From: a virus
Lineage: Duplodnaviria; Heunggongvirae; Uroviricota; Caudoviricetes
IMG/VR virus record: IMGVR_UViG_3300028805_000073
DNA length: 60,395 nucleotides
Strand: one strand, 5' to 3'
Under the pieces are notes generated by a model, which saw only the letters and a list, made by a program, of their open reading frames with translations, was not told the DNA's origin and ran no database searches. Shown here one piece after another: positions 1 through 57,372 of this stretch. A program made the position numbers and the translations under genes. How positions within the stretch are numbered: the first letter of the stretch is position 1; each line of letters starts with the position of its first letter.

Positions 1-1019
1 CTAGAAAAAGCTTTAAATGCAAGTACTGTGCTTGTTCCAGCTATTCCACCAGTTCCAGTTACAAAACTGTCTAATATGGTCGGTGTACAGAAGTTACCCC
101 ATACTCCATTTCTCTTTTTTCTATTAGACCACCAAAGGTAAGGATGTTCTGAATCTGCAGATTTAGGAGGATCATCAAACCAATAATATTCATTAGAATT
201 ATTAAGTTGATAAGCATAAAGATTCTCAGTGTTATAATTTGTTACCTATGGTAAAAATTCATCATTTCTATTAGTATATGTAGTACCATTAGTACGATAA
301 CAATTTGTCTAATTATTATTATCATATACTTTAACAACTCCTGATTCTTGATTTATTCCAGGAACAGAAGTTTTGTCTTTAGTCAATAGATAAATATATT
401 CTGTATCATTTGCATCAGGTCCTTTTTGATAATTCCATTTGTAGTCATTTGGATTTTGTGAATCATCTTCATTGTTATCAACATACATTCCATACCAATT
501 ATAAAATGTTCCTTTATTTAATCCTGTTGTGAAACCTACAGTATTTGTTATATTATTACCTTCAAATGTAAGTGAATCAGCAAAAGCAAGATGTATATAT
601 TTTTCACCTGTAGAACTACTATCATTAGATTCTCCTATATCAAACCATCCTTCAACAATAGTTCCATCTAATGTAATTTTATGATTTTTATTTCCTGTAT
701 AAATATAAACATGATTATTACATATATACATGGTACCTACTGTCAAACCTTCTTCATCATTACTAGGACATCTTTCAGTTATAGGTTGACCCTAATTCTA
801 ATCATCACCTTGAATTTTATATGTTTCTTCACCTATTTTTAATTCTCCAGTATTAGGATCAAAACTTATTAAGTCTGAGATATTAGAAATATCAGAGGAA
901 TTAGGAATTGGATTATTATTAAGGTATCCAATAATTTCATCCACTTTATGAGTTATAGCATTTAATTCAGTAGCAGTTAATGGTTTACCACATTCAAATT
1001 CTTTATTTAAAATATTCAT
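1..1019 (-). CDS. Tail/fibre-type structural protein, N-terminal part; runs off the window start; TAG=Gln
   Basis: Track ORFs 798-1019 and 309-746 share a frame and are separated only by TAG codons. The frame stays open to position 1 and includes a PYLWWSNR...WGNF motif typical of phage tail-fibre repeats. Confidence 0.7.
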
Positions 1020-1039
1020 AAAAATTTCTAATTTTTATA

Positions 1040-1729
1040 TTAATTACTATTCTAATTATCTTCTGGATCACAAGCAAGAGTAAAGCTTTTCTATTCTACT
1101 AATAACTATAATGAATTAACCTACTCAGTCAAACTTTGAATAGACTGTTGTAATTGCTAAATTAAGTTACTATTATTATTCTACTCTAAAACTTCAATAC
1201 TATCTTTTAAATTATTTATTTCAATTAAATACTCTTCTGGTATAGAATATTTAGGGTTATATTTAGTTAAACTTCCATTATTAACTATATATAATTGCTA
1301 TTCATCTTCAATATATATAATTCCTTTTTTAGGATAATTGTTACTAATCTTTTGAGTTTCAAATACTAATCCTAAATTTTTTAATGCAGTATATTTCTAT
1401 TCCTTAGAGGTATCCTATTCTTTTGTAAAAGAAACATAAATATCATTATTTTCTTCATTTTTATCAGTAGAATCTCTTGTTTTAGTAGAAGCTTGTTCTT
1501 CTTCCTATTGAGAAGTAGTTGTTTGTTCTCCTTCCTAGGTCTGTTCTTCTTCAACTTTAGGTTCTTCTTCTTTTTTCTTAACTAATTTAATATTTATGTT
1601 TCCTTCAGAGTCTAATAGGTCTATAAATTTTCTACCCCACTATATTTTAATCTTACCAGAACTTTTTAAAATGAGACCTTTATCAGAAGAGCCAATCTCT
1701 TCATAGTCTCTTCCGAACATGTTTAACAT
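1040..1729 (-). CDS. Conserved hypothetical protein (229 aa, TAG=Gln)
   Basis: ATG at 1729 to TAA at 1040 with only TAG interruptions. Begins [29 protein letters not shown](Q)[10 protein letters not shown]. Confidence 0.7.
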
Positions 1730-2010
1730 TTCTCATTAAGGTATTTATCTAAATCAAATTTATTCCAAGAAAGTTCTTTAAAACCTTGTCTTTTAGAACC
1801 TCTCGGAATTAAACCTTTATTTATATAATTATCAAAAGTAGCTCTTGATACTCCGATATAATCAGCCGCTTCTTGTTTGCTAAGTTCTTTAGTATTAATT
1901 TTATGAATAAAATCTATTACCTCTAACTATTGATGCTAACTTATATTAGAATTTCCAGAGTCAATATCATCTATTATCTATTGTAGTAAGTTTCTTATTA
2001 TTTTTAACAT
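1723..2010 (-). CDS. Small helix-turn-helix DNA-binding protein (MerR/excisionase-like, 95 aa, TAG=Gln)
   Basis: The reassembled ORF contains [29 protein letters not shown], a typical HTH pattern. Confidence 0.75.
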
Positions 2011-2012
2011 AT

Positions 2013-2180
2013 TTAATCATTATCTTCAGGATTATTCACTGGATTCTCAATTGACTAATCTCTATCAGGTAATCCTAAATCAACACTCTAATATCCATTA
2101 TAAGAGTTATCTTCAGTAGGAGTATTAGTCTAGTCCTAAACTTTTTTTCTACGACATCTTAAAGAAGTTATAAAACTCAT
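2013..2180 (-). CDS. Small hypothetical protein (55 aa, five in-frame TAG)
   Basis: ATG 2180 to TAA 2013. It packs tightly between its neighbours and is open only if TAG is read as sense. Confidence 0.5.
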
Positions 2181-2578
2181 TTTTTTAATTTAAATTTAAT
2201 GTAATAGTATGTATATCCAAATATTAATAATCCAATTAAAAGTAAATGTAATGCAAATAAGTTATAAATATTAAGCGGAATACATAAATAATCATCTGTT
2301 ATTAATAATATTTCATCTATAAGAATATAATACAATGGTAGCCTGTGTACATAACAAAATTCTAATGCCTATGATGCTGAATATAAATGTATCCAAGGTA
2401 AAATAGACATACTAGCTATATATCCTATTGAAATTGGATCTATTTCAAAAAAACATAACATTGTATATAAAACATATAATATTCCTATTAAATGTGGAAT
2501 ATACTTCGTAAGAATTAAAAATATCTTACGATTTCTTATACTAGCCAATTCGACCTCCTTTTTTACGAGATCTTCCAT
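2177..2578 (-). CDS. Multi-pass membrane protein (133 aa, TAG=Gln)
   Basis: Track ORF 2369-2584 continues through TAG to TGA at 2177. Several hydrophobic segments. Confidence 0.65.
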
Positions 2579-2689
2579 GACCAATTATTCTTTTACTCAT
2601 TGTTACTGGTCTTCGCATAATTGTTTATATTTAGTTATTTTCATTTAAAAATATTTATAGTTTAATATAAAACAAAAAAAAGTAGATTC

Positions 2690-3088
2690 TTATTCAGAAC
2701 CTACTTTCTTTTCAAGTTTTTTAACAATGTTATAAGATCGCATATTTAAATCTCCATTTAAATAAGCTAATTCTTCTTCATCATTAATATCTAATGTTTT
2801 AGATATATGACAAATTAAATGAAAATATTCATGTGCAATAGTATTTATTAACTATGAAAACGAACTTGTTTTATTAATTATTATAACTGAACTTTTTAAT
2901 TTAGTATTTGAATATGTTAAGCCAATATTTAGATCACAAGTTTCTAAATTATTTAATGCTTCTTTTATATATTTCTTAGGACATTTTATTCCTATTAAAG
3001 TTTCTATTATATTATCAATATCATCACAAGTACACTCATAAAATACAGATACATTCCAATCATAAATAATAAAATTATCTATTATCAT
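2690..3088 (-). CDS. Hypothetical protein with HExxH motif (132 aa, TAG=Gln)
   Basis: Readthrough of TAG 2852 gives S(Q)LINTIAHEYFHL and ends at TAA 2690. Confidence 0.7.
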
Positions 3089-3480
3089 AACATTTCATCC
3101 CACTCAATTGGAATACCAAGAGTTACTGTATCTGCATACCATCTATTAAACACAATTCCATCATATCCATCTTCGTCATCTATTACATCTTTAACATATA
3201 ATGCAAGATGTTTTTCATCTATAATACTACTTCCCATGAAATCGTTATTTCCCATATTACAAACATATATATAATCATAAAGTTCATTATTTTCCAACTT
3301 TATATTATATTTAGTAAGTAATTCCTCGACTTTATCTTTAGTCATTGGAGTTTTACCATGATTCATTTTAGAAACAGCAAATTCACATAGTTTTTTATTA
3401 AAATGCTATCCAAAGTATTTTAAATAACGTTTCATAGAAGAAGGTCTATCATCATATATATCAAGAGGCATTCTGTTCAT
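3085..3480 (-). CDS. Conserved Bacteroidota phage hypothetical protein (131 aa, TAG=Gln)
   Basis: Starts MNRMPLDIYDDRP...YFG(Q)HFNKKLCEFAVSKM and joins track ORF 3085-3366. Confidence 0.7.
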
Positions 3481-3482
3481 AA

Positions 3483-3695
3483 TCAATAAGAACGTCTGCC
3501 GCCACGGCGCATACCATAGCGAGAACCGTACATATCATCATCGTCATAATCTTTATGTTTGCTTCTTTCTCCGTATTCTGAATTTTCTGCAAGATCTTCA
3601 AACATTGCAACAAGACAATCAGAATGTTTTACTATTTCGGAAGCTGCTTTCATCATTTTTCCGAATTTGTCTTCAGTAACTTCAAGTATAATCAT
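3483..3695 (-). CDS. Small hypothetical protein with Arg/Gly/Tyr-rich C-terminus
   Basis: Track ORF ending YGSRYGMRRGGRRSY, in operon context. Confidence 0.7.
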   Translation of the reverse strand: MIILEVTEDKFGKMMKAASEIVKHSDCLVAMFEDLAENSEYGERSKHKDYDDDDMYGSRYGMRRGGRRSY

Positions 3696-4153
3696 TTTTG
3701 TATTAAATTAAATATTTTATCAAGTTTAGATTCAACACCATCAAATCTACTTTCTAGATTAGTTAGTCTTTCATCTCTTTCTTTATCTATAGCAAATTGA
3801 GGATTAAGTTGTTTAAGAATATTTTCACAATCTTCAATATTCTATTTATAGTAATCAATATTATTTATAATATTTCTACTAGAAGATAATATAGTTTCTA
3901 CTTCACTCTATATACCCTGTTTTGTTTCACTTATTAATAATTTTCCATTATTATATGTACTAAAACTATTAATACTTGGAAGATTGTTAAATTCTTGAAT
4001 TGAATCATCAATTTTTACTTTCAAATCTACTGTTGCCTAATTAAAAGTATATTTAGGCTATGTTACACCGACAATTTCTCCAACTAAAAATTTAGGAGAG
4101 GAAGTTTTATCTAATAGATAGATAGAACTTCCTTGTGAAAGAGCTGAGAACAT
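3692..4153 (-). CDS. Hypothetical protein (153 aa, TAG=Gln)
   Basis: ATG 4153 (MFSALSQGSSIYLLDK) to TGA 3692 with only TAG interruptions. Both ends overlap neighbouring genes. Confidence 0.7.
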
Positions 4154-4491
4154 TATACTAATTGCATTAAATTAGAGTTCTTATCATAATAGATAGTATA
4201 AACTCCAGGTAATGAAAAATCTGTTCCAGTAACAGCTACTCCTCCTACATTAGTTAAAGGTTGAGTAAATTCGTTAGAAGAGAATAGTATGGGAAGAGTT
4301 GTATTAGTAATTTCAGTATTAAGTCTAAATAATAATAACCCAGTTCCATTTAAAAATCTAAATGCTCTATTAGGAATATTTATTATTACATTAGTTGTAG
4401 TAACTTCTACTGAATTACTTTCAATCATCGGAATACCATTTCTATTTGCAAAATTAAACGGATAATTAGTTGTTGCTCCAAACATATTCAA
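4153..4491 (-). CDS. Hypothetical beta-rich protein
   Basis: Track ORF of 112 aa ending in TAA. Confidence 0.7.
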   Translation of the reverse strand: MNMFGATTNYPFNFANRNGIPMIESNSVEVTTTNVIINIPNRAFRFLNGTGLLLFRLNTEITNTTLPILFSSNEFTQPLTNVGGVAVTGTDFSLPGVYTIYYDKNSNLMQLV

Positions 4492-4504
4492 CTCCTTTCT
4501 TTAA

Positions 4505-5506
4505 TTAATTCCAAAAACTAGTCTAACCGAATCCTCCTATATAAGGAGTTACATTAGCAGCAATTACATTAGGCCACTAAACAGGAATAGTATTTGGTTG
4601 TCTAGCTGCAATAGCATCAATCTTATCATCAAGTGCACTCATAGCTTTATTAAATGCTAATGTTTGATTATCATTACTAATTTGATTTCTTAACTGAGTA
4701 ATTATATCACCTTGAGTATTAATCTTGTTCTATAATTCCCTTTCTTTAAGATCACAGAATTCTTTAGTAATAAGAGTGTTTTGTCCAGCAATAGCATTAA
4801 GAATACTATTAGTATTAGTATCAGCTTGTCTAGTGAGAGTATTAGTCTACTGACATACAGTAAGCTAATCAGCAGCTTCAATCTATGCATTTTGTAACTA
4901 ATCAGCAGCATGATTCTAAGAAGCAAGAAGCTAACTAGCAGCATGATTTTGAGAAGCTAATAATGTAGAATCAGCATGATTAGCTGCCATTTGACTTTGA
5001 ATAGCATTAGTTTGATTTGCAATAGCTAATCTGTTTTCACAGCAGCAATTACATAACTATTGACTAAGAGAAGCATTTCCAGATTGAATAGAATTAATAA
5101 CCTATTGTCCAGACATACCTACTTGAGCACCTACAGTTTGGATTGCAGATTGAATAGCATTAACTCCGTTTTGTACTTGACTTACACTTGTATTAAGAAT
5201 ACCTGCTAACTGATTAAGAGAATCAGCTCTACCATTAATAGCTTGTAAGAGTAAATCTCTACCAGCATCATTGTTTAATTGATTTGATAAGAATCCAGTA
5301 CCCATAACATTACCTGCTCCACCAAATCCTCCGAATCCACCGAATCCTCCGTTGAACATCCAAGGAAATAAGAAGAACAAAAACATAGGCCACATCCAAT
5401 TCATACCATTACCAAAACCTCCGTTCTAACTTAAAGCAAATAGAAGAGCAGGGTCTATTGAATTATTGTTTCCATCAGGAACATTAAAAACCTTTGTTTC
5501 AGACAT
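4505..5506 (-). CDS. Gly/Gln-rich phage protein with CNCCCENR motif (333 aa, TAG=Gln)
   Basis: Readthrough gives SGQ(Q)VINSIQSGNASLSQ(Q)LCNCCCENRL. The TAGs fall inside Gln-rich context. Confidence 0.8.
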
Positions 5507-38585: not shown

Positions 38586-38590
38586 AATTG

Positions 38591-38666
38591 TTGGGGAAGC
38601 AGGATTCGAACCCGCGTAATGCAGAGATTTAGAGTCTCCAGTCTGAGGCCGCTCGACTATTCCCCA
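38591..38666 (-). tRNA. Amber suppressor tRNA, anticodon CUA, probable Gln identity
   Basis: TGGGGAA/TTCCCCA acceptor (U1-A72, G2-C71, G3-C70), anticodon arm GGAGA CT-CTA-AA TCTCT, T arm GCGGG TTCGAAT CCTGC. Confidence 0.92.
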
Positions 38667-46319: not shown

Positions 46320-46392
46320 TGGACAATGGTGTAATTGGTAACACACTACTCTTAAAAAAGTGGTATTATAGGTTCGAGTCCTATTTGTCTTC
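46320..46392 (+). tRNA. Degenerate tRNA with a Gln-like body and an 8-nt anticodon loop (CTTAAAAA); probably pseudo
   Basis: D stem GTGT/ACAC, CTACT/AGTGG stem, T arm ATAGG TTCGAGT CCTAT. The acceptor has mismatched terminal pairs. Confidence 0.55.
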
Positions 46393-48412: not shown

Positions 48413-48844
48413 ATGGAAATGAAGATTAATTTTACAAAAGAACATTATGCAAAGCTTAAAGAACTTGCTGTTCAAGCTTTATTTGAAGGAATAACCCTTC
48501 GTACTAAGTTGGGACCGTATCTCACTATTTACGAACTCGTTCACACAACTTCAATCAATCAACTTAATGAGATTAAGAATGGTCTTGCTAAGCAAATTGA
48601 AAAGATTGAGTCAGGTGATGAATGGATAGATCCAGATTCCGAGAAACTAGAAAGTCTCAAATCCAATAAAGAATTAGTTAATTTAATTATTGGATGGAGG
48701 AGATACAATCTAGAAAAAGAGACTAACGCTCGTAAGAAGGAAGAGCTTGAAGCTAAACTTGCCGAACTAAAAGAATCTACTAAGACTCCAGAAGATCGGA
48801 TTAAGGAGCTTGAAGCTCAACTTAAAGAGTTGGAAGAATTCTAA
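48413..48844 (+). CDS. Coiled-coil phage protein
   Basis: 143 aa with C-terminal KKEELEAKLAELKE...IKELEAQLKEL. Confidence 0.75.
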   Translation: MEMKINFTKEHYAKLKELAVQALFEGITLRTKLGPYLTIYELVHTTSINQLNEIKNGLAKQIEKIESGDEWIDPDSEKLESLKSNKELVNLIIGWRRYNLEKETNARKKEELEAKLAELKESTKTPEDRIKELEAQLKELEEF

Positions 48845-48849
48845 AGATT

Positions 48850-49395
48850 CCAGGGTGGGCGTGGTGGAAAGTCTGGGTAGTGCACTACTAGAGCGAGACT
48901 TTGTGTAGAATCTTTTCAATATAATAAGACTGAAGCTTGATACCGGAATGATAATTCTATGCTTAAGCGCATAACTTCGCTCATTATCATAAAGTAGAGA
49001 TAAAACCGCTCGAAGCCAGTCTTATTTTAAATATAATAAATTTCCGAGGGCTGAAGGGAATTCCAATATTGAACCTTCAACGGGTATACTGAATTGACAG
49101 TTGGAAGACCTTGTAGTGGCAAACACGTGATTGAGGTCATTGTGATACGTAAAGCAACGTAATGGAGACTGTAAAATAGAAAAGCAGTGAAAATCTGCAC
49201 TTTAGTAGAATCTCTTAGTAGATTGAAGGAGTTAATTGCTATAAAACAGATGTAGGAAATTTATTTTGTCTTCGGACTTGTTGGTGTATCAACTGGGAAG
49301 GTTACATCGAGAACAGAAAAGAACCCAAGCAGTTAAACATCTGTGGAGGACGTGGAAACCGTTCACTTTTATGGCACAATCCCTAAATTAAAGAT
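48850..49395 (+). ncRNA. Candidate ~550-nt structured RNA upstream of the TROVE-like gene
   Basis: No ORF. Helices AATAAGACTG/CAGTCTTATT (48923-32/49017-26), ATGATAA/TTATCAT, TGAAGG/CCTTCA, GACCT/AGGTC and ACAGATGT/ACATCTGT (49246-53/49337-44). Confidence 0.5.
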
Positions 49396-49426
49396 TAGTT
49401 ACTTACAAATTTCATAATTTAAAAGA

Positions 49427-51277
49427 ATGATTACAGTAGAATTAAACAAAAAGAACGAAAACCCATTTTATGGGTGTAGTAACTGTTTGAAATTAGTCGA
49501 ACAAGCAGCAGGTAATATAACTTATTCTATGCTTGATGCAGCATGGAATGAAGTTGCACAAGATATCGAGAAGAGAAAGATGTTCTTTTCAGTACTATTC
49601 TCCATTGGAGATATTACTGGAAGACAGCATAATATCTTTAAAGGAAAGAAAGTAGACTCTGGTGGTAATGCCAATAGAGATGCTTTCAATACCATTTTCC
49701 ATTGGTTATGGAACAATAACAAAAATCAATTCATTAAGTTCATGAACGCTCAGCTATTCAATGAATATCAGTGTTTTGATACATTGTTCCAGAATCGTGT
49801 GCAAACCAAAGGATCAAAGGTGTTGAATGTATTCTCTGCCTATCGTGATCCAGAGTATAAGAAAGCACTTCTTAACTATGTGTATTCTGTTATCAATGGT
49901 ACCAATCCGTTTAACAAGATGCTCATAGCTAAGTTCTTGACCATTCCTCGTACATCTAAGAGACAAGGTCATAAGAAGATGTTTCCTGAAACTCTCAAAA
50001 TTATGAGAGAGAAGAAGGCTTTCTTAGAGGAACTTTCTAAGATGATGGGTTGGGAGATAGCTTTCTTAAAAGGTTATCGTGAATGGCGCAAACAGTACAA
50101 TGGAGAATTGGAATCTGTTCTCTTCTCTACTGGAAAGATTAACGAATTTACTACTAAGGATGAATTCCTTAGTTGGTTTGATAAGCTTCCAGCACAAGCA
50201 CGTTTCCGTGTGAAGAACCGTATTCTTTATTCTAAAGATGGAACTCAAACTATAAATACTAAGAAGAACGATGGTAAAAGTCTTACCATTGTTGCAGATA
50301 AGTATAAGTGGGCTAAGTTCCAGCCTTGGTTAAAGGAATGGGAAACTTACAAGGATAAGAAGCAAGAAGAGCAACGTATTCTTGAAGAGAAAGTTCGTCA
50401 AGGACAGGCATCTGATGAAGATAAGATTAGACTTCAGAAGGTGAAGAAGGAAGCAAAGGTTACAACTGGTGCTATTAACTTTAAAGAGTTGTATGATTCA
50501 ATTCTGAGAGGTAATGTAGACAAGTTAAAACTTGAATCATTCATCCAGAATAAAGTCAATTTGCCATACAATAGTTTGGTAATCATTGACGATTCTGGTT
50601 CAATGAACGGCTCTCCGTTCAGATTTGCGAAGTTTATCGCTTCAGTATGTCTTGTTAAGAATCCAGATGATGATGCTCGTAATCTAATTGGATTCTTTAA
50701 CAGTACTTCTCACTGGCACAGTTTCATTGATCAAACTTCTTCTCGAAGAAATAGTCTTCTTAGAACTCAAATTGCTCAAACTAATGCTAAGCCATTAGTT
50801 GATCCAACCTTGAGTTTCTATGATAACTACTTGAGAATTAGTAGTTTCTGTGAAGCAGTATATCAGGGTGGAGGAACATACATCACAAGTATTCCTAAAG
50901 GTTTAGAGTTTATCATTAAAGAGAATCCAGATTTCTTGGACACTCTTAAAGAGTATCCGATTTGGACAATCTTAAGCGATGGTGACTTGAACAATGATTG
51001 GAATGCTCGTAGTAGTATGCTACAATTCCAGAATGACTGCCGTCGTATTCTTGGTTATGTTCCATTCGTAGTGATGATTGAAATTTATCGCTATGGACAA
51101 CCTTCAATTAACCATTTTGAAGGAATTGAGAATATGATTTACATTCCTGGAAATCCTGCTCAGATTGAACAATTCTTAACCAACTTTAAGGATATGGATA
51201 TCTTTGATGTCTATACTCCATTGTTGAGTCTCTATAGAAGTAATAGGTATGAACTCGTGAGAGCAAATACCCTTTAA
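49427..51277 (+). CDS. TROVE/DUF2828-like protein with C-terminal vWA domain (Ro60-like architecture)
   Basis: MIDAS motif VIIDDSGSM plus later GGT and ILSDGD elements. The helical N-terminus has LF...DI...GG...R..F and AKF..PR elements of the kind seen in DUF2828/TROVE proteins. Family assignment is by recalled motifs. Confidence 0.7.
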   Translation: MITVELNKKNENPFYGCSNCLKLVEQAAGNITYSMLDAAWNEVAQDIEKRKMFFSVLFSIGDITGRQHNIFKGKKVDSGGNANRDAFNTIFHWLWNNNKNQFIKFMNAQLFNEYQCFDTLFQNRVQTKGSKVLNVFSAYRDPEYKKALLNYVYSVINGTNPFNKMLIAKFLTIPRTSKRQGHKKMFPETLKIMREKKAFLEELSKMMGWEIAFLKGYREWRKQYNGELESVLFSTGKINEFTTKDEFLSWFDKLPAQARFRVKNRILYSKDGTQTINTKKNDGKSLTIVADKYKWAKFQPWLKEWETYKDKKQEEQRILEEKVRQGQASDEDKIRLQKVKKEAKVTTGAINFKELYDSILRGNVDKLKLESFIQNKVNLPYNSLVIIDDSGSMNGSPFRFAKFIASVCLVKNPDDDARNLIGFFNSTSHWHSFIDQTSSRRNSLLRTQIAQTNAKPLVDPTLSFYDNYLRISSFCEAVYQGGGTYITSIPKGLEFIIKENPDFLDTLKEYPIWTILSDGDLNNDWNARSSMLQFQNDCRRILGYVPFVVMIEIYRYGQPSINHFEGIENMIYIPGNPAQIEQFLTNFKDMDIFDVYTPLLSLYRSNRYELVRANTL

Positions 51278-51300
51278 ATAATCGTGTAAAATTTTAAATT

Positions 51301-51331
51301 GACTAGAGGAGGTTCGATTCCTCCTCTAGTT
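51301..51331 (+). ncRNA. T-loop-capped 12-bp minihelix-like hairpin
   Basis: GACTAGAGGAGG TTCGATT CCTCCTCTAGTT. Confidence 0.5.
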
Positions 51332-51338
51332 TCTAATT

Positions 51339-51403
51339 AGGATACTTACAATATTAAATTGCTAGTAAGTAACCAACTTTTAATTGATTACATTTAGTAT
51401 CCT
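51339..51403 (+). ncRNA. Y-like cassette 1 (AGTA-loop hairpin plus Lys-UUU anticodon hairpin)
   Basis: AGGATACT/AGTATCCT closing stem; internal TTGCT-AGTA-AGTAA and CAA-CTTTTAA-TTG. Confidence 0.7.
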
Positions 51404-51434
51404 TTTTAACAAATTTTAAATTTGAAATAAAAAT

Positions 51435-52226
51435 ATGAAAAATAAATTAAATGTACTTTTAGCTTTAAGAGAAAAACTCGCAAATCGTTATGCACAAATG
51501 AATGGAGATTACACTTCATTCTTTAAAAATAAACAGGGAGCTTTTCAAGGAGTATTAAAAACTCACTCACCTTTAGATGGATATTCAATAGATCCAACTA
51601 AGGTAGCAAATACTAGAATTGTTACTACAGTAAATGAAAAAATGGATTGGTGGCTTAAGGAAGCATTAGAATATTTTAATACAGCTCTTGCTATTGAAGC
51701 GTCCAATGGTGAAGGTGCTCCTTCTGTAAAACTTGAATTTGAAGGAAAAGAATACGGACCATTTCCTGCTACTGTACTTCTCCGTCTTCGTGGCATTATT
51801 GAAAGTGATAAACTTGCACAGATGCTTGGTTCTATTCCAGTAAGAGAGGAGACAAAAGTTTGGTTTCCATCAACTGATGAGGATTACATAAAGAGAGGTA
51901 ACATTTTTGAAACTGAAATGCAATCTGGAGAAACTCGTACAACTGAGACTCATGATGAAATTTTAAAAGATTGTAATCTTGATCCTCAGCATCTTCCTTC
52001 TAATTATAAAGCAGTAGTTACTTCTGTTAAGAAAACTGTAAAGACTGGTGATTACACAACTCAGTTTTTCACTGGTGAATGGACACATCAGCAAAGAGCA
52101 AATCTTTTGAAGAGACGTTCAGAACTTCTTGATGCTATCAATGTTGCTTTACAGAAAGTAAATGACCGAGAGGCTACTGAATGTAAAGTTGATGAACTTC
52201 TTGGACATTTGATTTATGGACAATAA
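51435..52226 (+). CDS. Conserved phage hypothetical protein (263 aa)
   Basis: Track ORF located inside the TROVE-like/RNA locus. Confidence 0.8.
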   Translation: MKNKLNVLLALREKLANRYAQMNGDYTSFFKNKQGAFQGVLKTHSPLDGYSIDPTKVANTRIVTTVNEKMDWWLKEALEYFNTALAIEASNGEGAPSVKLEFEGKEYGPFPATVLLRLRGIIESDKLAQMLGSIPVREETKVWFPSTDEDYIKRGNIFETEMQSGETRTTETHDEILKDCNLDPQHLPSNYKAVVTSVKKTVKTGDYTTQFFTGEWTHQQRANLLKRRSELLDAINVALQKVNDREATECKVDELLGHLIYGQ

Positions 52227-52473
52227 GATATTTCTTCTTGATTGGGAAGATAATGATATGGTTGGAGGTTTTGATGGAAAAACTTTTGATCAATGTTTTA
52301 ATACTGATAAAAAGTTATTATGTTGGAGCCTTCAACATACTATGGAATTAAAAGGAGTATCTTCATTAGAAATTCAATTTCTTAAATCTCATAAAGAATT
52401 AAATGAATTAAGAAAAAAGAACAATATTGAAGTAAAACCTACTCTCGATGAATATTTAGAAAAATTTAAATAA
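52216..52473 (+). CDS. Small hypothetical protein
   Basis: Track ORF overlapping the previous stop. Confidence 0.6.
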   Translation: MDNKIFLLDWEDNDMVGGFDGKTFDQCFNTDKKLLCWSLQHTMELKGVSSLEIQFLKSHKELNELRKKNNIEVKPTLDEYLEKFK

Positions 52474-52498
52474 TTGACCGTAGCTTTAGATTCACTTT

Positions 52499-52842
52499 AT
52501 TAGCTTTACAAATCCTAGATAATAAGCATTAATGTCGTGGTCAAAAGCATTAGTTAGGTTGATTACTGTATATTACTTACCTTGACGATTATAGCAATCC
52601 TAATATCGTAAGTTCGAATCTTACTAGCCCCTCATCACAGGCGTACTGAAGAAGGTTCAGCATTCCCGAAGTAAAATGTGTGAAATAGCTTTTATTAGAG
52701 GAGCTTCCCCGCAGAGGTTGTAATCTAATATTTGGGGCTATAGTATAGTGGTTAGTACATTAGGTTAGTTTAGCATTAGATTAAAGAGGTAAAAGGTAAT
52801 ATGCAAAAGTCTATGGATTAGTAAGACGGATTTGTCGCTAAT
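52499..52842 (+). ncRNA. Large rod-shaped RNA with a circularly permuted tRNA domain
   Basis: The tRNA 3' half (CCTAA, T arm 52608-24, TAGCCCC) precedes the 5' half (GGGGCTA 52734-40, D arm, TTAGG). Flanks pair as TGTATATTAC/GTAATATGCA, TTACCT/AGGTAA, ACAAATCC/GGATTTGT and ATTAGC/GCTAAT. Confidence 0.75.
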
Positions 52843-52846
52843 CCTA

Positions 52847-52921
52847 GGGGAAGTAGATCAGTGGTAGATCAATAGTCGCCAAAACTATGTGTCGTTGGTT
52901 CGAATCCAACCTTCCCTGCCA
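52847..52921 (+). tRNA. trnW: tRNA-Trp(CCA) with non-canonical G33, encoded CCA end
   Basis: Full cloverleaf; anticodon arm ATAGT CG-CCA-AA ACTAT; G73. Confidence 0.8.
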
Positions 52922-52922
52922 T

Positions 52923-52999
52923 AGAGAGGTATGCGAATTGGTATAGCAGCTTAAAATTCTAGGTATAAGTGTTTGGGAGTTCGATTCTCTCCCTCTCTA
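52923..52999 (+). tRNA. Aberrant tRNA with Leu-type D arm and irregular anticodon arm (TTCTAGG; UAG or CUA reading ambiguous)
   Basis: Acceptor AGAGAGG/CCTCTCT and intact T arm. CTTA/TAAG encloses 12 nt. Confidence 0.5.
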
Positions 53000-53006
53000 C
53001 CTGATC

Positions 53007-53071
53007 AGGATACTTACAATACTAAAAAGCCAGTAGGCAATCAACTTTTAATTGATCATGTTTAGTATCCT
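53007..53071 (+). ncRNA. Y-like cassette 2 (AGTA-loop hairpin plus Lys-UUU anticodon hairpin)
   Basis: AGGATACT/AGTATCCT; GCC-AGTA-GGC; ATCAA-CTTTTAA-TTGAT. Confidence 0.75.
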
Positions 53072-53090
53072 TTTAAAGAGATATAAAAAT

Positions 53091-53212
53091 AAGTTACTTA
53101 CAAAATAAAATATTAGCTTGCTAAGCCGCGTGTCATGGGTTCAAATCCCATCAAGGGACTATAAACTCCTTGTAGCTCAGTCTGGTAGAGCAACGTATTC
53201 ATTAAGTAACTT
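53091..53212 (+). ncRNA. Y-like cassette 3: permuted tRNA elbow (T arm, closed acceptor, D arm)
   Basis: AAGTTACTT/AAGTAACTT; ATGGG TTCAAAT CCCAT; CAAGGGA loop TCCTTG; GCTC AGTCTGGTA GAGC. Confidence 0.8.
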
Positions 53213-53322
53213 TTTAAAATTAAAAAATTATGGGAGAATTAGCTTTTATTTGTGGTTGTATGACATATTTGTGTGTTATGATAACCTTTATTTATATCAA
53301 ATTATGTAATAAATAATATAAT

Positions 53323-53436
53323 AAGATACTTACAAAACCATATTTAATGTTGGTTCGAATCCAACCTTCGTATTTACGATGTGGTGAAATTGGTATACAC
53401 GAGAAACTGTGGATTTCTTTATAAATTAAGTATCTT
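53323..53436 (+). ncRNA. Y-like cassette 4: permuted T-acceptor-D plus His(GUG) anticodon hairpin
   Basis: AAGATACTT/AAGTATCTT; GTTGG TTCGAAT CCAAC; TCGTA/TACGA; GTG..GGTATA CAC; AGAAA CT-GTG-GA TTTCT. Confidence 0.8.
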
Positions 53437-53442
53437 TTATAT

Positions 53443-53561
53443 GCAGGAGATAGTGTAATTGGTAACACGACGTAGTTATTAGTATCATACGATACTTACA
53501 ATACCAATTAACATTGCTTTTGGTGCCGTTAATGAGTGGTTCGAGTCCCTCTCTCCTGCCA
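53443..53561 (+). ncRNA. Cassette 5: tRNA-Gln(UUG)-like RNA with a 43-nt insertion carrying the closing stem in permuted form
   Basis: Normal-order tRNA. The anticodon stem ACG|GC / GCCGT is split by 53473-53515, which contains AGTATC-ATAC-GATACTTACAA. Confidence 0.75.
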
Positions 53562-53784
53562 GTTTACACACTAATAATATACGCGTTAAAAATAGTGTGG
53601 TTTTCCTATTCAACCTGAGTGGAACACTTCGATGTTATCTTCTAAGTCTGAAAGTTAAGCGATTAGGTACTAAAGGAAGTGAGAATAGTGAAAATGCTTT
53701 TGAAATTGTTATTTTTTACTTATTATATTAATAATTTACAAAGAGAAGTCTGTTGTGAAACATACTTCTTTACTAATAAACAAT

Positions 53785-54063
53785 ATGGAAAAGTATAGAA
53801 TTGCATTTACAATAGAGGACTATTACGATTATATTGGATATAGTATTAAAGAACGTATGTTACAATCTATTCCAGATTTATTTAGAGAGAATGGTTATAA
53901 CATTAAATTCAAAACTCTTCATTATTATCAACATAAATACTATAGAGTACACATGTCGGTTAGAATGACAGAGGAAAAAATCAAGGAAGTATTTGAAGAA
54001 TACAAAGATATGATGTTTGAATTAAATAACACATCATATAAATTAATAACAAAACATTTTTAA
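53785..54063 (+). CDS. Small hypothetical protein
   Basis: ATG-trimmed track ORF. Confidence 0.6.
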   Translation: MEKYRIAFTIEDYYDYIGYSIKERMLQSIPDLFRENGYNIKFKTLHYYQHKYYRVHMSVRMTEEKIKEVFEEYKDMMFELNNTSYKLITKHF

Positions 54064-54067
54064 TTAT

Positions 54068-54295
54068 ATGGGAAAAGGTAAAGGTGAATTAGTAGTTCGT
54101 CAAAGAGCTGCTTTAAAAAGATTGGAGGCTGCTTATGAAAAATTTAAAGCAGCTGGTGAAGATAAGAAACCTTACGATTCTACTCGTAATGGTAGAATTA
54201 TTCATCACTCTGGTAGAAGTTATAAAGAAGAATGTGAAAGAATGAAGAAAGAAATCTCCAATTTAAAGGAGAACATTTCAAAGAATCATTCTTAA
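54068..54295 (+). CDS. Small basic hypothetical protein
   Basis: Track ORF of 75 aa. Confidence 0.65.
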   Translation: MGKGKGELVVRQRAALKRLEAAYEKFKAAGEDKKPYDSTRNGRIIHHSGRSYKEECERMKKEISNLKENISKNHS

Positions 54296-54341
54296 CATTT
54301 TTTAACTATAATATCTAAAAATAAAAAATAAATTTAAAATC

Positions 54342-54396
54342 AAGATACTTACAAATTTTTATTATAATTTATAATGTTGGAATAAATAAGTATCTT
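54342..54396 (+). ncRNA. Y-like cassette 6 (minimal)
   Basis: AAGATACTT ACAA ... AAGTATCTT followed by a T run. Confidence 0.65.
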
Positions 54397-54403
54397 TTTT
54401 TTG

Positions 54404-54487
54404 GCCCCTATATTCGAATTGGTATAGAAGACAGACTTAAAATCTGTTCAGCAGTTGCTGGTGTGAGTTCGAGTCTCACTAGGGGTA
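54404..54487 (+). tRNA. trnL: tRNA-Leu(UAA)
   Basis: GCCCCTA/TAGGGGT; ACAGA CT-TAA-AA TCTGT; long variable arm. Confidence 0.88.
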
Positions 54488-54506
54488 CATGGACTGAGGA
54501 TAACTT

Positions 54507-54993
54507 AATTAAATTTGAGTGCTATGGCGAGAAATCCCATAGTAGAATCTCCCTAAAACGGTGGAAGTCCTTTTAGCCCTGATATATCAGGAGGATTTTC
54601 TGCACTGAACAATCGCAGAACACTAACCAATAATGTGTAAGGATAATACCGTGCTAAATTGATAATCTTAGTAGCATTTATATGTGAAAAGCGAATGTTG
54701 AGTAGTAGAACGGCTACATTATCATAAATGTGTAGAGGATATAGAGGAGATACCTAAGTTGAAATTTATGTTAAAGCAGAGTATAGAAACTGCTACATAT
54801 GAGATATAGTTTACATAAGAACCTATTCCCTCAAAAGGTTTAAACCCTAACATAATCTTGCAAGAATTTCAATATGGTAATAATATATTCCAGACCACAA
54901 CAAATTTAACGCATCATCGGTTGGATGCCTGGGGACATGTGCCTCGTATATACGTTATTGTTAAGTTTGGCTATGGTAACATAGTGTGGTAGG
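54507..54993 (+). mobile_element. Group I intron (487 nt, no ORF) lacking a recognisable tRNA 5' exon
   Basis: P1 ACUU|AA/UUGAGU with a U.G pair; P3 ATCTCC/GGAGAT; P4 ACGGT/ACCGT; P7 GAGGATA/TATTCC; GTAA-capped P9; terminal G. Confidence 0.8.
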
Positions 54994-55044
54994 AAAATCC
55001 AATGTCCAGTAATGGACGTGGGGATTCAATTTCCCCTAGAGCTA
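54994..55044 (+). pseudogene. Orphan 3' half of a class II tRNA (Leu-UAA type)
   Basis: AAAA TCCAA, variable arm GTCC/GGAC, T arm GGGGA TTCAATT TCCCC, acceptor strand TAGAGCT-A. No complementary 5' half was found nearby. Confidence 0.7.
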
Positions 55045-55114
55045 CATGTCGTGAGACATATGATTTTTTGTTAACGATTGTTGGTTAAGCTACTGTACCT
55101 TAACAGTAGCACTT

Positions 55115-55185
55115 TGGGGTTCGGTGTGACGGTCGCACAGAAGATTTTGGTCCTTCTAGTACAGGTTCAACTCCTGTAATCCCAA
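55115..55185 (+). tRNA. trnQ: tRNA-Gln(UUG)
   Basis: TGGGGTT/AATCCCA; loop TT-TTG-GT; U1-A72. Confidence 0.85.
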
Positions 55186-55189
55186 CTAT

Positions 55190-55254
55190 AGGATACTTAC
55201 AATAGATAATTAAATGCGATAAATAAATATTTATAGGAATGTTCTAAGTATCCT
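55190..55254 (+). ncRNA. Y-like cassette 7 (minimal)
   Basis: AGGATACTT ACAA ... AAGTATCCT. Confidence 0.65.
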
Positions 55255-55258
55255 TAAT

Positions 55259-55296
55259 GCGCTCATAGCTCAGTTGGTAGATGCACATGACTTTTA
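55259..55296 (+). pseudogene. Orphan 5' half of tRNA-Lys(UUU)
   Basis: GCGCTCA TA GCTCAGTTGGTAGATGC A CATGA CTTTTA, fused directly to the next tRNA. Confidence 0.7.
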
Positions 55297-55367
55297 GCTT
55301 CCAAAGCTTTAAGGTGAAGCACGAAACTTTTAATTTCGGGAACACGGGTCAGTACCGTGTGGAAGCA
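55297..55367 (+). tRNA. trnK: tRNA-Lys(UUU) with atypical T loop (GTCAGTA)
   Basis: GCTTCCA/TGGAAGC; CGAAA CT-TTT-AA TTTCG; CACGG/CCGTG. Confidence 0.8.
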
Positions 55368-55373
55368 CAATTT

Positions 55374-55499
55374 AAGTTACTTACAAAATTATTAATAATA
55401 TTATACTAAAATTAGTATCAATGGTTCGAATCCATTATTTTCCACCATATTTTTTGGGAGATTAGCATAGTGGTTTAATGCAATATTTTTAAGTAACTT
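55374..55499 (+). ncRNA. Y-like cassette 8: permuted tRNA elbow with internal ACCA and a G3.U70 pair
   Basis: AAGTTACTT/AAGTAACTT; T arm 55420-36; ATTTTCC-A-CCA (55437-47), linker, GGGAGAT (55456-62); GCAT/ATGC D stem. Confidence 0.8.
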
Positions 55500-55702
55500 T
55501 CTTCTATAAAAGAATATTTAACAAGACCCTCTAACTAAGGTGACAGGCTGCCTTAAGCAATGTAGGTGTACGCTAGCAATAATCCATACATTTCTAGGTG
55601 AGAGTAAATATAAAGTTGGTGCACAAGTGAAATTACTCTTAGAGCATTTAATACTAAATAAATTGGTTTAAATGTAATGTCAAAAAATATTCTTTTTAAT
55701 AT

Positions 55703-55775
55703 CACGGAGTGGAGCAGTTGGTAGCTCGCCAGGCTCATAACCTGGAGGTCGCACGTTCGAATCCTGCCTCCGTAA
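55703..55775 (+). tRNA. trnM: tRNA-Met(CAU), initiator-like (C1xA72)
   Basis: Cloverleaf with loop CT-CAT-AA and a C1/A72 mismatch. Only two of the three initiator G-C pairs are present in the anticodon stem. Confidence 0.85.
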
Positions 55776-55801
55776 CATAGCTTTCTTTTTTCTGACATAA
55801 T

Positions 55802-55908
55802 AAGATACTTACAAAACTAAAATGATGTTTAGTTCATTTGGTTAGAACGATTTCTTTTCAAGAAATAGTAACAAGTTCGATTCTTGTAATGTCAACCAGA
55901 AGTATCTT
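55802..55908 (+). ncRNA. Y-like cassette 9 enclosing a complete tRNA-Glu(UUC) (55823-55898, CCA end)
   Basis: AAGATACTT/AAGTATCTT flanks TGATGTT...ATTTC TT-TTC-AA GAAAT...AATGTCA-A-CCA. Confidence 0.8.
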
Positions 55909-55912
55909 AAAT

Positions 55913-55984
55913 CGTGGGTTCATCTAAGGGTTAGGATTGCAGATTTTCGATCTGCCCATACCAGTTCGAATCTGGTACCCATGA
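55913..55984 (+). tRNA. trnE: tRNA-Glu(UUC)
   Basis: CGTGGGT/ACCCATG; GCAGA TT-TTC-GA TCTGC. Confidence 0.85.
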
Positions 55985-56188
55985 CTTAGTCCGACTTTTT
56001 GGCAAAGTCGTTAAAGAAATGCACCACTGTTTAATAGTTTTGCAGTAAAGAACTATTCGTTGTAAGAGAGAAAATAACTCTTAGAATAAGCGTTAATGAT
56101 TCAAAAAAATTCCTAGATATTTTTTCTAGTAGAATCCTACATGGTTACAAATAATGACTAATAAAATAACATAAATGTAGGATTATTT

Positions 56189-56260
56189 GGGGTGTGTGAT
56201 GTAAAGGCTAACATATCATCCTTGCACGATGAATTTGCGGTTCGAATCCGACACACTCCA
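56189..56260 (+). tRNA. trnA: tRNA-Ala(UGC)
   Basis: G3.U70, A73; TCATC CT-TGC-AC GATGA. Confidence 0.85.
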
Positions 56261-56263
56261 CTA

Positions 56264-56347
56264 AAGATACTTACAAATACTTTTAATATTTTATTAGACA
56301 TCATATGTAGTATCAAGTTTATTAATCTTAATAATCTTAAGTATCTT
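56264..56347 (+). ncRNA. Y-like cassette 10 with Lys-UUU anticodon hairpin
   Basis: AAGATACTT/AAGTATCTT; AAATA-CTTTTAA-TATTT at 56275-91. Confidence 0.7.
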
Positions 56348-56352
56348 TTAAT

Positions 56353-57158
56353 GCTCCCTTAGCTCAGTGGATAGAGCAACTGCCTTCAGTATATTTCTGT
56401 GAAGAAATAAACAGGAGTGCTATGGCGAGAAATCCCATAGTAGAATCTCCCTAAAACGGTGGAAGTCCTAGTTAAAATTGAAGACCCTTAGTAGCCTATA
56501 GGCGAAAGTGGAATACGGCTTTAATGGCTTGCAGCAAACGTAAACTGCATCTGAAACAATAAGGAAGGATAATACCGTGCTAAATTGAGAAACAGTAGAA
56601 GTCCTTTTAATACTGATAATATAAATTCATTTGTATATAAAATTTATGTTAAGATAAATATAAAACTTTTGAATAAAATAGCGTCTTGGCTATATCCAAG
56701 CAATAATATCAGTAACACTAACCAATAATGTGTAAGGATGATTTAGTACAAATAGTTCAAATGGAAATAGAACGCTCATAAAAGTGTAGAGGATATAGAG
56801 GAGATATGAGGGAAATATATTGAATACCCTCACATTCTATTCAGACGTATCTGATAAGAATGCCTAAGTTGAAATTAGTGAGGGAAGGTCACAGTAGTCC
56901 TGTTATAAAACATCGGAAAACCTCCTTGCTTACTTGCAAGAATTTCAATATGGTAAAGATGTATTCCAGACCACAACAAACAAACAATCGCTGAGGGTAA
57001 CAGAGTGACTATCGTAGTTACAAGGCAAATCCTGTAAGTCAAAAGCCTAAGCCTTCTTAGGGATAAACATAAAATCGGAGGCTAAAATTTGTTTGGCTAT
57101 GGTAACATAGTGTGGTAAGCTAAGCAGTAGGTCACAGGTTCGAATCCTGTAGGGAGTA
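56353..57158 (+). tRNA. trnR: tRNA-Arg(UCU) split by a group I intron: join(56353..56386, 57120..57158)
   Basis: The spliced product has ACTGC CT-TCT-AA GCAGT, acceptor GCTCCCT/AGGGAGT, and canonical D and T arms. Confidence 0.9.
56387..57119 (+). mobile_element. Group I intron (733 nt, no ORF) after U34 of tRNA-Arg(UCU)
   Basis: CUU|C pairs with IGS GGAG through a U.G pair. The core is nearly identical to the 54507-54993 intron and ends in G. Confidence 0.9.
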
Positions 57159-57258
57159 CTATATTCAATACTAGATAAGAATCTCTTTTTTGTTTTGTTT
57201 TCATAGTATTAGTTCTATATAGAGAGTAATTCTAGTTAAACTCTCATTTCATAATAAT

Positions 57259-57372
57259 GAGATACTTACAAAATCATATTTTGTGAATTTTTAGCTCATT
57301 TGGTAGAGCGCACGATTTATAATCATGAGGTCGCCGGTTCAATTCCGGCAAAATTTATTTTATTAGTATCTC
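57259..57372 (+). ncRNA. Y-like cassette 11 enclosing a tRNA-Ile(UAU)-like cloverleaf (57285-57357)
   Basis: GAGATACT/AGTATCTC flanks a tRNA with loop TT-TAT-AA and an almost purely A-U acceptor stem. Confidence 0.75.

Follow-up and report, generated by a model that had tools for sequence, protein, structure and literature searches.

Features at the locus

The DNA analysed here is a stretch of 60,395 nucleotides (nt) from IMG/VR record IMGVR_UViG_3300028805_000073, a virus of the Caudoviricetes; the whole of this stretch is called the window, and positions are numbered from its first letter. Its + strand carries a gene for a 616-amino acid (aa) protein with a fold like that of Ro60, preceded by an open reading frame (ORF) of 143 aa and followed by an array of 11 cassettes with closing stems of one type. 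A further copy of this stem (the leader helix) lies at the start of the Ro60-like gene, with its 5' arm in the leader and its 3' arm in the coding sequence. Comparison with related loci indicates that an RNA helix of the cassette-stem type exists at or around this start codon and was kept by selection; it may be an operator through which the Ro60-like protein regulates its own synthesis. The coordinates are collected in Table 1, in which positions with a sign are relative to the ATG and handles such as L011 denote related loci.

Table 1. Features of the Ro60-like locus in the window, and position of the 3' arm of the leader helix in related loci
Feature	Position	Strand	Remarks
143-aa ORF	48413-48844	+	Directly upstream of the Ro60-like gene; coiled-coil-like C-terminus
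Leader helix, 5' arm, AGTTACTTACAA	49397-49408	+	-30 to -19; end of the motif 18-19 nt 5' of the ATG
Start codon ATG of the Ro60-like gene	49427-49429	+	First ATG after a stop; N-terminus conserved in homologues
Gene for the 616-aa protein	49427-51277	+	Predicted Ro60/TROVE-like fold, helical ring and vWA domain with MIDAS (metal ion-dependent adhesion site); AlphaFold2 model, Foldseek, VIA
Inner hairpin, ACCCAU-UUU-AUGGGU	49461-49475	+	Codons of the invariant peptide N-P-F-Y-G
Leader helix, 3' arm, GU-AGUAACU(G)	49476-49485	+	Codons Cys17-Ser18-Asn19-Cys20; +50 to +59
Array of 11 cassettes, closing stem of the leader type	51340-57371	+	5' arms at 51340, 53008, 53092, 53324, 53490, 54343
Cassette 5' arms, continued	55191, 55375, 55803, 56265, 57260	+
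3' arm, window clade	+51		Cys-Ser-Asn
3' arm, one large clade	+21 to +30		Lys-Ser-Asn, AGT AAC
3' arm, L011, L024, L038, L050	+8 to +11		Gln/Glu-Val-Glu/Lys; arm TTTTACTT pairs with AAGTAAAA or AAGTAGAA
3' arm, L048	+11		Other reading frame, Ile-Val-Thr
3' arm, L043, L049	+27 to +30		TTCACTT/AAGTGA (L043: AGTGAA)
3' arm, L027, L033, L036, L047, L032, L022	-9 to -36		Entire stem just 5' of the ATG

Predicted fold of the element at the start codon

RNA secondary structure was predicted with RNAfold. In both the minimum free energy (MFE) and the centroid structures, 49396-49403 pairs with 49478-49485 in a terminal helix of 8 bp (including one U.G), U49404 is bulged, and A49405-C49406 then pairs with G49476-U49477, stacking directly on the inner hairpin. 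The AUG lies within an A-rich open loop of about 55 nt closed by the helix, and -18 to +34 is unpaired in the centroid fold. The leader helix of the window encloses the initiation region, as is expected of an operator that overlaps or encloses its site of action. The stem had been noticed in an earlier reading of the window made from its letters (the sequence-only reading), which described the 5' arm, the ATG, the two halves of the inner hairpin (ACCCAT, 49461-49466; ATGGGT, 49470-49475) and the partner TGTAGTAACT (49475-49484, within the Cys-Ser-Asn-Cys codons 17-20 of the 616-aa ORF) correctly, and which had the stem straddle both the ATG and the inner hairpin, in agreement with the two predicted structures. 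It also paired ACA of the leader with TGT of the coding sequence; two of these three pairs are predicted to form, and the third is not, since T49475 is taken by the inner hairpin. The inner hairpin itself shows weak covariation at paired synonymous sites (third positions of the Asn and Gly codons, Fisher p 0.014; of the Pro and Tyr codons, p 0.04; 38 distinct sequences), and its complementarity (CC..GG) is partly dictated by the N-P-F-Y-G peptide.

The window by itself makes no compelling case for the pairing: with 13 copies of AGTAACT on the + strand of the 60 kb, the chance of one copy within 100 nt is ~2%. The weight comes from the comparison with related loci.

Comparison with related loci

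The comparison set consisted of 52 locus records, several of them duplicates, taken from IMG/VR and from metagenome assemblies at 30-91% protein identity. In most of the homologous loci, (N)TTACTTACAA or a close variant of it is found 1-30 nt 5' of the ATG. Thirty-three distinct leader versions (30-90% identity) have the arm motif near the ATG, and in each of them the arm has its own complement of 6-9 bp (7-9 bp in all but one). The location of the complement varies from -36 to +51, in differing codons and with compensatory changes. The variable arm positions 3-5 are paired in all of the 29 distinct arm pairs, by G-C, U-A, A-U, C-G or G.U; examples of the covarying pairs are GTTACTT/AAGTAAC, TTTACTT/AAGTAAA, TTCACTT/AAGTGA and GACACTT/AAGTGTC. 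In the homologous loci, to which the sequence-only reading had pointed as the place to look, the pairing has thus been kept, through both covariation and relocation.

The table of arm pairs was fitted, the best helix having been picked for each locus; hence two null models were used. In the first, the same arm was set against other segments of equal length from the coding sequence of its own locus; in most loci the observed helix was the best of about 230 segments, with a combined p of 2e-23 by Fisher's method for 27 loci, which are not independent of one another. In the second, more conservative model, the amino acids were fixed and the synonymous codons were redrawn from the usage of the gene itself; for 15 lineages below 70% identity, the combined p was 9e-6 by Fisher's and 2e-7 by Stouffer's method. 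When the arms were swapped against seven alternative arm types, the own type was best or tied best in 16 of 22 loci. Chance complementarity in AT-rich sequence, for which the window taken alone leaves some room (about 2% for the 7-mer; fold z-score about -1.3), is hardly credible in view of these combined statistics, of the relocation with compensatory changes and of the swap test.

The coding-side arm of the window is unchanged in the close relatives L001, L002 and L004, while adjacent synonymous sites vary. More distant relatives have Leu/Met-Arg/Lys-Asn at this site and their 3' arm elsewhere. The peptide is Gly-Cys-Ser-Asn-Cys in the window clade as against Gly-Leu/Met-Arg/Lys-Asn-Cys in the others, and the older Lys-Ser-Asn site is lost; judged from these alignments, the peptide of the window clade itself changed in the direction that creates the arm.

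Relation to the downstream cassettes

There are exactly 12 copies of the 8-mer TACTTACA in the window, each of them on the + strand and within 49.4-57.3 kb. The proposal that 49397-49408 is a twelfth copy of the cassette stem is borne out by this count, and the 5' arm of the leader agrees with each of the two cassette arms at 53092 and 55375 in 11 of 11 positions. An exact 7-mer complement lies 45-120 nt downstream of the 5' arm in 10 of the 11 cassettes; the variable bases covary here too (GGATACT/AGTATCC, AGTTACT/AGTAACT, AGATACT/AGTATCT), and the closing stem is present in all MFE and centroid folds. The cassette at 53008 and the leader have the same 7-bp helix, AGUUACU/AGUAACU, with the same continuation by a bulge and AC/GU. 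The feature by which the presumed RNA ligands would be recognised is present in the leader, as target mimicry would have it.

The cassettes contain small hairpins, complete tRNAs (Glu, Ile) or rearranged tRNA-like modules, and 8 of 10 cassette 3' arms are followed by at least three U. The 3' arm of the leader has no such U-run and is followed by the coding sequence GUUUG, which is expected if the RNA must run on into the coding sequence. For the cassette at 53092-53211, a full-length but sub-threshold match to YrlA of Rfam (RF02553) was obtained at 53105-53220 (+; 41.9 bits against a gathering score of 69; E 9e-7); it is carried by the T arm, the closed acceptor and the D arm, and the terminal stem does not match. 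The leader (49397-49485) gave no YrlA (RF02553) match even at E up to 1, and its loop holds none of these tRNA-like arms (T arm, closed acceptor, D arm), its contents being the A-rich leader, the AUG and 16 codons. It is the stem of the cassettes only that the leader copies.

In lying just 5' of the gene and of every small RNA unit, the motif is placed like a promoter, and the element could have its function in the DNA. It would then be a promoter or initiator, or else the inverted repeats of a cassette that is mobile or recombines, and the complementarity of the coding sequence would be incidental. Inverted repeats also keep complementarity in DNA, and a comparison of G.U with A.C in the helices (given below) is not decisive in this respect. 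Such a DNA-level function is nevertheless very improbable. Only G-N-TACTTACAA is invariant among the 12 copies, with nothing conserved upstream of the arm; five arms lie 3-26 nt past a tRNA 3' end, and for four of these the gap is 3-6 nt, too small to hold a promoter; and the covarying positions are upstream of the invariant core and must therefore be transcribed. Three relatives of ~180 kb, complete or nearly so, have TACTTACAA clustered within 8-14 kb around the gene, on the strand of the gene, and at background elsewhere. The partner of the leader arm, moreover, moved between codons and reading frames yet stayed complementary. On the lack of upstream conservation, the arms abutting tRNA 3' ends and the confinement of the motif to one region, a promoter was rejected. 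As for pairing in RNA rather than in DNA, we lean on the asymmetry between the strands, on the tRNA context and on the likeness of the architecture to that of YrlA. Even taken jointly, DNA-level function and chance are quite improbable.

A scan for sigma-70 promoters and for terminators gave nothing useful at the element, the models covering neither Bacteroidota nor phage polymerases. An intrinsic terminator or attenuator was rejected on the missing U-run after the leader 3' arm, and no + strand terminator was called at 49476-49490. A DNA-hairpin promoter of the N4 type was set aside as well, the arms being 45-120 nt apart and enclosing tRNAs or tRNA-like modules.

The cassette arms also occur in other arrangements. 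In the tRNA-like gene at 53443-53561 (+) they are reversed in the anticodon region (AGTATC, a 4-nt loop, GATACTTACAA), which is a permuted form of the cassette, and the same arrangement is found upstream of the Ro60-like gene in L046. A 10-bp hairpin with a T-loop-like TTCGATT loop, similar to a tRNA minihelix, lies at 51300-51333 (+), just 3' of the stop codon of the Ro60-like gene, and the first cassette begins 7 nt beyond it. In L041 (IMG/VR 3300027724_000010; + strand, 413-4690; 34% identity), the cassettes have ACTTATAATA instead of ACTTACAA, and five ACTTATAATA copies have exact 7-mer partners; ACTTATAA is also found in the leaders of L043 and L047. From the variants in these three loci it follows that the invariant part of the arm itself drifts among lineages.

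The Ro60-like protein

The protein model was computed with AlphaFold2 from an alignment of 70 sequences that represent the family (predicted local distance difference test (pLDDT), 90; predicted template modelling score (pTM), 0.84); an earlier model from 9 sequences (pLDDT 68) was too poor and was set aside for it. The ten best Foldseek matches in the PDB are all Ro60, Rsr or TROVE proteins, including Ro60 of the Thermus phage phiLo (full-length; E 3e-6 to 3e-4; template modelling (TM) score 0.23-0.46), and the best matches among the Swiss-Prot models of the AlphaFold database (AFDB) are Ro60 from five species, telomerase p80 and TEP1. VIA-align gave Z 11-12 with a root mean square deviation of 5.5-6 Å over about 390 residues, matches to the vWA domain only being barely lower (Z about 10). 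The MIDAS motif DxSxS...T...D is formed by D388, S390, S392, T484 and D518, none of which varies in the 70-sequence alignment.

No Pfam match was obtained for the window protein or for 10 distant relatives. TROVE was matched by 0 of 70 family members and vWA_Ro60 by 2 of 70 only, weakly (E 0.015). In three complete or near-complete relatives PF05731 (TROVE) found nothing, while the control genomes responded, and PF11443 (DUF2828) found nothing in the three relatives tested. The family profile reached TROVE proteins among the PDB sequences only at E 0.1, and NCBI-style profile searches do not place the window protein. In PHROGs the protein has a weak match to phrog_850, 'RNA-binding protein'. 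The term TROVE-like, by which the gene had first been called, is therefore correct for the fold as modelled; it does not extend to a Pfam TROVE match, and judged by the model and these profiles the family is not a sequence-level member of TROVE. The family forms about 150 clusters at 50% identity in metagenomes, and tblastn found no match to the protein in deposited GenBank phage genomes.

The two-gene module and the spacer

In nearly all loci tblastn places the 143-aa ORF, at identities as low as 31%, just 5' of the Ro60-like gene. A weak match to phrog_2018 (function unknown) was obtained for it, with no Pfam family and no named relatives in the Atlas search. By this conserved order the ORF and the Ro60-like gene make up a two-gene module with the leader helix in its spacer, and the 143-aa protein may be a partner of the Ro60-like protein. 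The arm lies 10-65 nt past the stop codon of the upstream ORF in most relatives, and so close behind it the stem is most likely internal to a two-gene transcript. The sequence-only reading had taken the motif to be linked to this protein independently of synteny. This independence was overstated, the element being in the spacer of the two-gene module and the evidence still positional.

A selected stem in this spacer could also be read by a factor other than the Ro60-like protein. The 143-aa protein is one candidate; others are a different phage protein and a nuclease or chaperone of the host by which all cassette stems are handled. The cassettes and the mRNA would in that case share their regulation or processing, in place of autoregulation. 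The first product of the conserved module has no known function, and the cassette arms lie 3-6 nt past tRNA 3' ends, from which the whole array is probably one processed precursor. We consider another binder unlikely, however, because the Ro60 fold is documented, for a phage as well, to bind such closing stems, namely those of Y RNAs (PMC4201824, PMC12135203); the motif tracks this protein family at 30-90% identity, with ACTTACAA strongly biased to the strand of the gene in nearly all loci; and the stem is at the start of the Ro60-like gene, not at that of the 143-aa ORF.

The window has an extra stretch of 550 nt (48845-49396), free of ORFs and richer in G+C, between the 143-aa ORF and the leader arm. 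It has no Rfam match at E up to 1 and may be a large structured RNA. Parts of it are conserved: the segment around 48990-49030 is found again immediately 5' of the arm in L010 and L024, and that around 49200-49260 in L013. A terminator-like hairpin lies within this stretch at 49348-49364, 33 nt 5' of the leader arm, and the mRNA could on this account start near the arm. The leader helix could also be explained as a structural element that acts without protein, namely as a constitutive damper of initiation, as a protection of the 5' end against decay or as a boundary from the structured upstream RNA. The cassettes are likewise paired at both ends, and in many lineages the 3' arm is at +8 to +30, within the usual footprint of the ribosome, where a helix of 7-9 bp would slow initiation. 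We think a protein-free role improbable, in that the distance of 10-65 nt from the upstream stop codon points, in most relatives, to a place within the transcript and not at its end; the arms of the window clade, at -30 and +51, are at the edge of the ribosome footprint and leave the AUG open; and a stem for stability or damping needs no invariant ACUUACAA in common with the cassettes.

Proposed autoregulation by the Ro60-like protein

The best reading of the element, to which we give a probability of roughly one half, is autoregulation by the Ro60-like protein that is relieved by competing cassette RNAs. The leader helix would be a translational operator by target mimicry, the stem of the cassette RNAs of the protein having been copied onto its own mRNA. 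The helix as proposed has a part of 7-8 bp that is variable but paired and that ends in ACUU/AAGU, then ACAA, and the start codon would be in the open A-rich loop. When the Ro60-like protein is in excess over the cassette RNAs, it would bind the leader stem and either hinder the loading of the 30S subunit or mark the mRNA for decay; when the cassette RNAs are abundant, they would compete for the protein and translation would proceed. As the AUG is open in the loop in the window clade, a bound factor seems necessary there for any effect; a helix with its 3' arm at +8 to +30 would by itself reach into the ribosome footprint. The lowered initiation or stability and the competition by cassette RNAs are proposed by analogy with the thrS, ribosomal-protein and MS2 operators, and the Ro60-like protein is the candidate binder by analogy with the binding of Ro60 to the closing stems of Y RNAs.

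Several points weigh against this reading. The leader helix is short (about -10 kcal/mol), and the fold of the window element is not significant, with a z-score of -1.32 and 24 of 200 shuffles folding equally well (RNAfold). The p-values of single loci under the conservative null model are modest (0.01-0.42), and the case depends on the pooling of lineages. In 8 lineages the stem is upstream of the ATG instead of around it, the end of the 3' arm being 1-27 nt before the ATG in these relatives, and about 7 of roughly 40 lineages (e.g. L025, L028, L029, L031, L045, L051, L052) have no such element at the ATG. Extension of the helix by G.U as against A.C was counted in 15 versus 10 of 33 leaders and in 28 versus 42 of 195 cassette arms, which gives no clear preference for pairing at the RNA level. 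The RNA-binding mode of the protein is extrapolated from the modelled fold alone, and the 143-aa protein or a host factor could be the binder instead.

Other features in the window and in related loci

A DUF7873 gene (51435-52226, +; E 6e-31) follows the first cassette of the window. As a candidate partner it was dropped, a gene of this kind being beside the Ro60-like gene in three lineages only (L003, L004, L033). The small ORFs near the element gave no Pfam families. In L048 (47% identity), an RNA ligase gene (PF09414) at 104-886 (+) precedes the Ro60-like homologue by two genes.

The inserts at 54507-55000 and 56405-57117 (500-750 nt) are homologous to each other, have blocks in common that are 94-100% identical, and gave no match in Rfam. 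The second of them is at the anticodon loop of a tRNA-like gene, between its 5' half (about 56350-56385) and its 3' half (about 57118-57160), and therefore looks like an intron. ARAGORN found a tRNA with a four-base anticodon (taaa) and an 8-nt loop at 46320-46392 (+; Rfam tRNA 47.6 bits), and two suppressor tRNAs (CUA) are at 38590-38666 (-) and 52923-53001 (+).

Comparison with known systems and significance

Operators that act by target mimicry are known from the leader of Escherichia coli thrS, which mimics the anticodon arm of tRNA-Thr, from the ribosomal proteins S8, S15, L1 and L20, from the MS2/R17 coat protein hairpin, which holds the replicase AUG, and from T4 RegA and gp32. The present element is like the mimicry operators in that the mRNA of a putative RNA-binding protein carries a feature of the ligand at its initiation site; in the known systems the free ligand competes. 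It differs from them in that the helix spans a long distance (about 70 nt between the arms in the window) and runs from the leader to the coding sequence, with one arm constrained by codons, and in that the partner arm moved repeatedly in evolution; binding and repression are a proposal for the present element.

Particles of Ro60 (Rsr) with Y RNAs are represented by Salmonella Rsr-YrlA, Deinococcus Rsr-Yrn1 and the Ro60 of Thermus phage phiLo with Yrl1/Yrl2 (PMC4201824, PMC12135203). As in these systems, a predicted ring-plus-vWA protein is found here beside small RNAs whose ends pair as a closing stem and in which a tRNA-like module is frequent. The Y-like RNAs of phiLo are directly 5' of the Ro60 gene, as is the stem in those of the present loci in which it lies wholly upstream of the ATG. 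The present system differs in that the protein has no Pfam TROVE or DUF2828 match, that the stem sequence (..ACUU ACAA) is unlike that of YrlA, that there are 11 cassettes, some of them around complete tRNAs, and that a copy of the stem encloses the start codon of the protein itself. Autoregulation is not mentioned in PMC4201824 or PMC12135203, the paper on phiLo makes no mention of mRNA, and a full-text literature search found no report of Ro60 autoregulation. The principle of the ligand-mimicking operator is classical, and phage Ro60 with adjacent Y-like RNAs was already known (PMC4201824, PMC12135203).

Neither the TROVE nor the DUF2828 model of Pfam covers the protein family, which is abundant in uncultured crAss-like phages of the gut and the rumen. 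Conservation of Ro60 and Y RNAs extends from bacteria to humans, and how their stoichiometry is set is little known. For this stoichiometry the stem mimic at the start codon provides a simple hypothesis that can be tested by mutation, and it links the cassette stems and the protein in a more direct way than their being neighbours does. That RNA structure can shape the choice of codons and even of amino acids is clearly exemplified by the repeated relocation of the coding-side arm (Cys-Ser-Asn in the window clade versus Leu/Met-Arg/Lys-Asn elsewhere). We put forward tentatively, at somewhat short of even odds, that the Ro60-like proteins of large crAss-like phages gauge their pool of Y-RNA-like and tRNA cassettes through the mimic of the stem at the start codon. 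If true, this would be, as far as we could find, the first described autoregulatory operator of the Ro60/TROVE superfamily, and it would be a read-out of the RNA code that a divergent ring protein recognises, namely a paired variable stem ending in ACUU, then ACAA.

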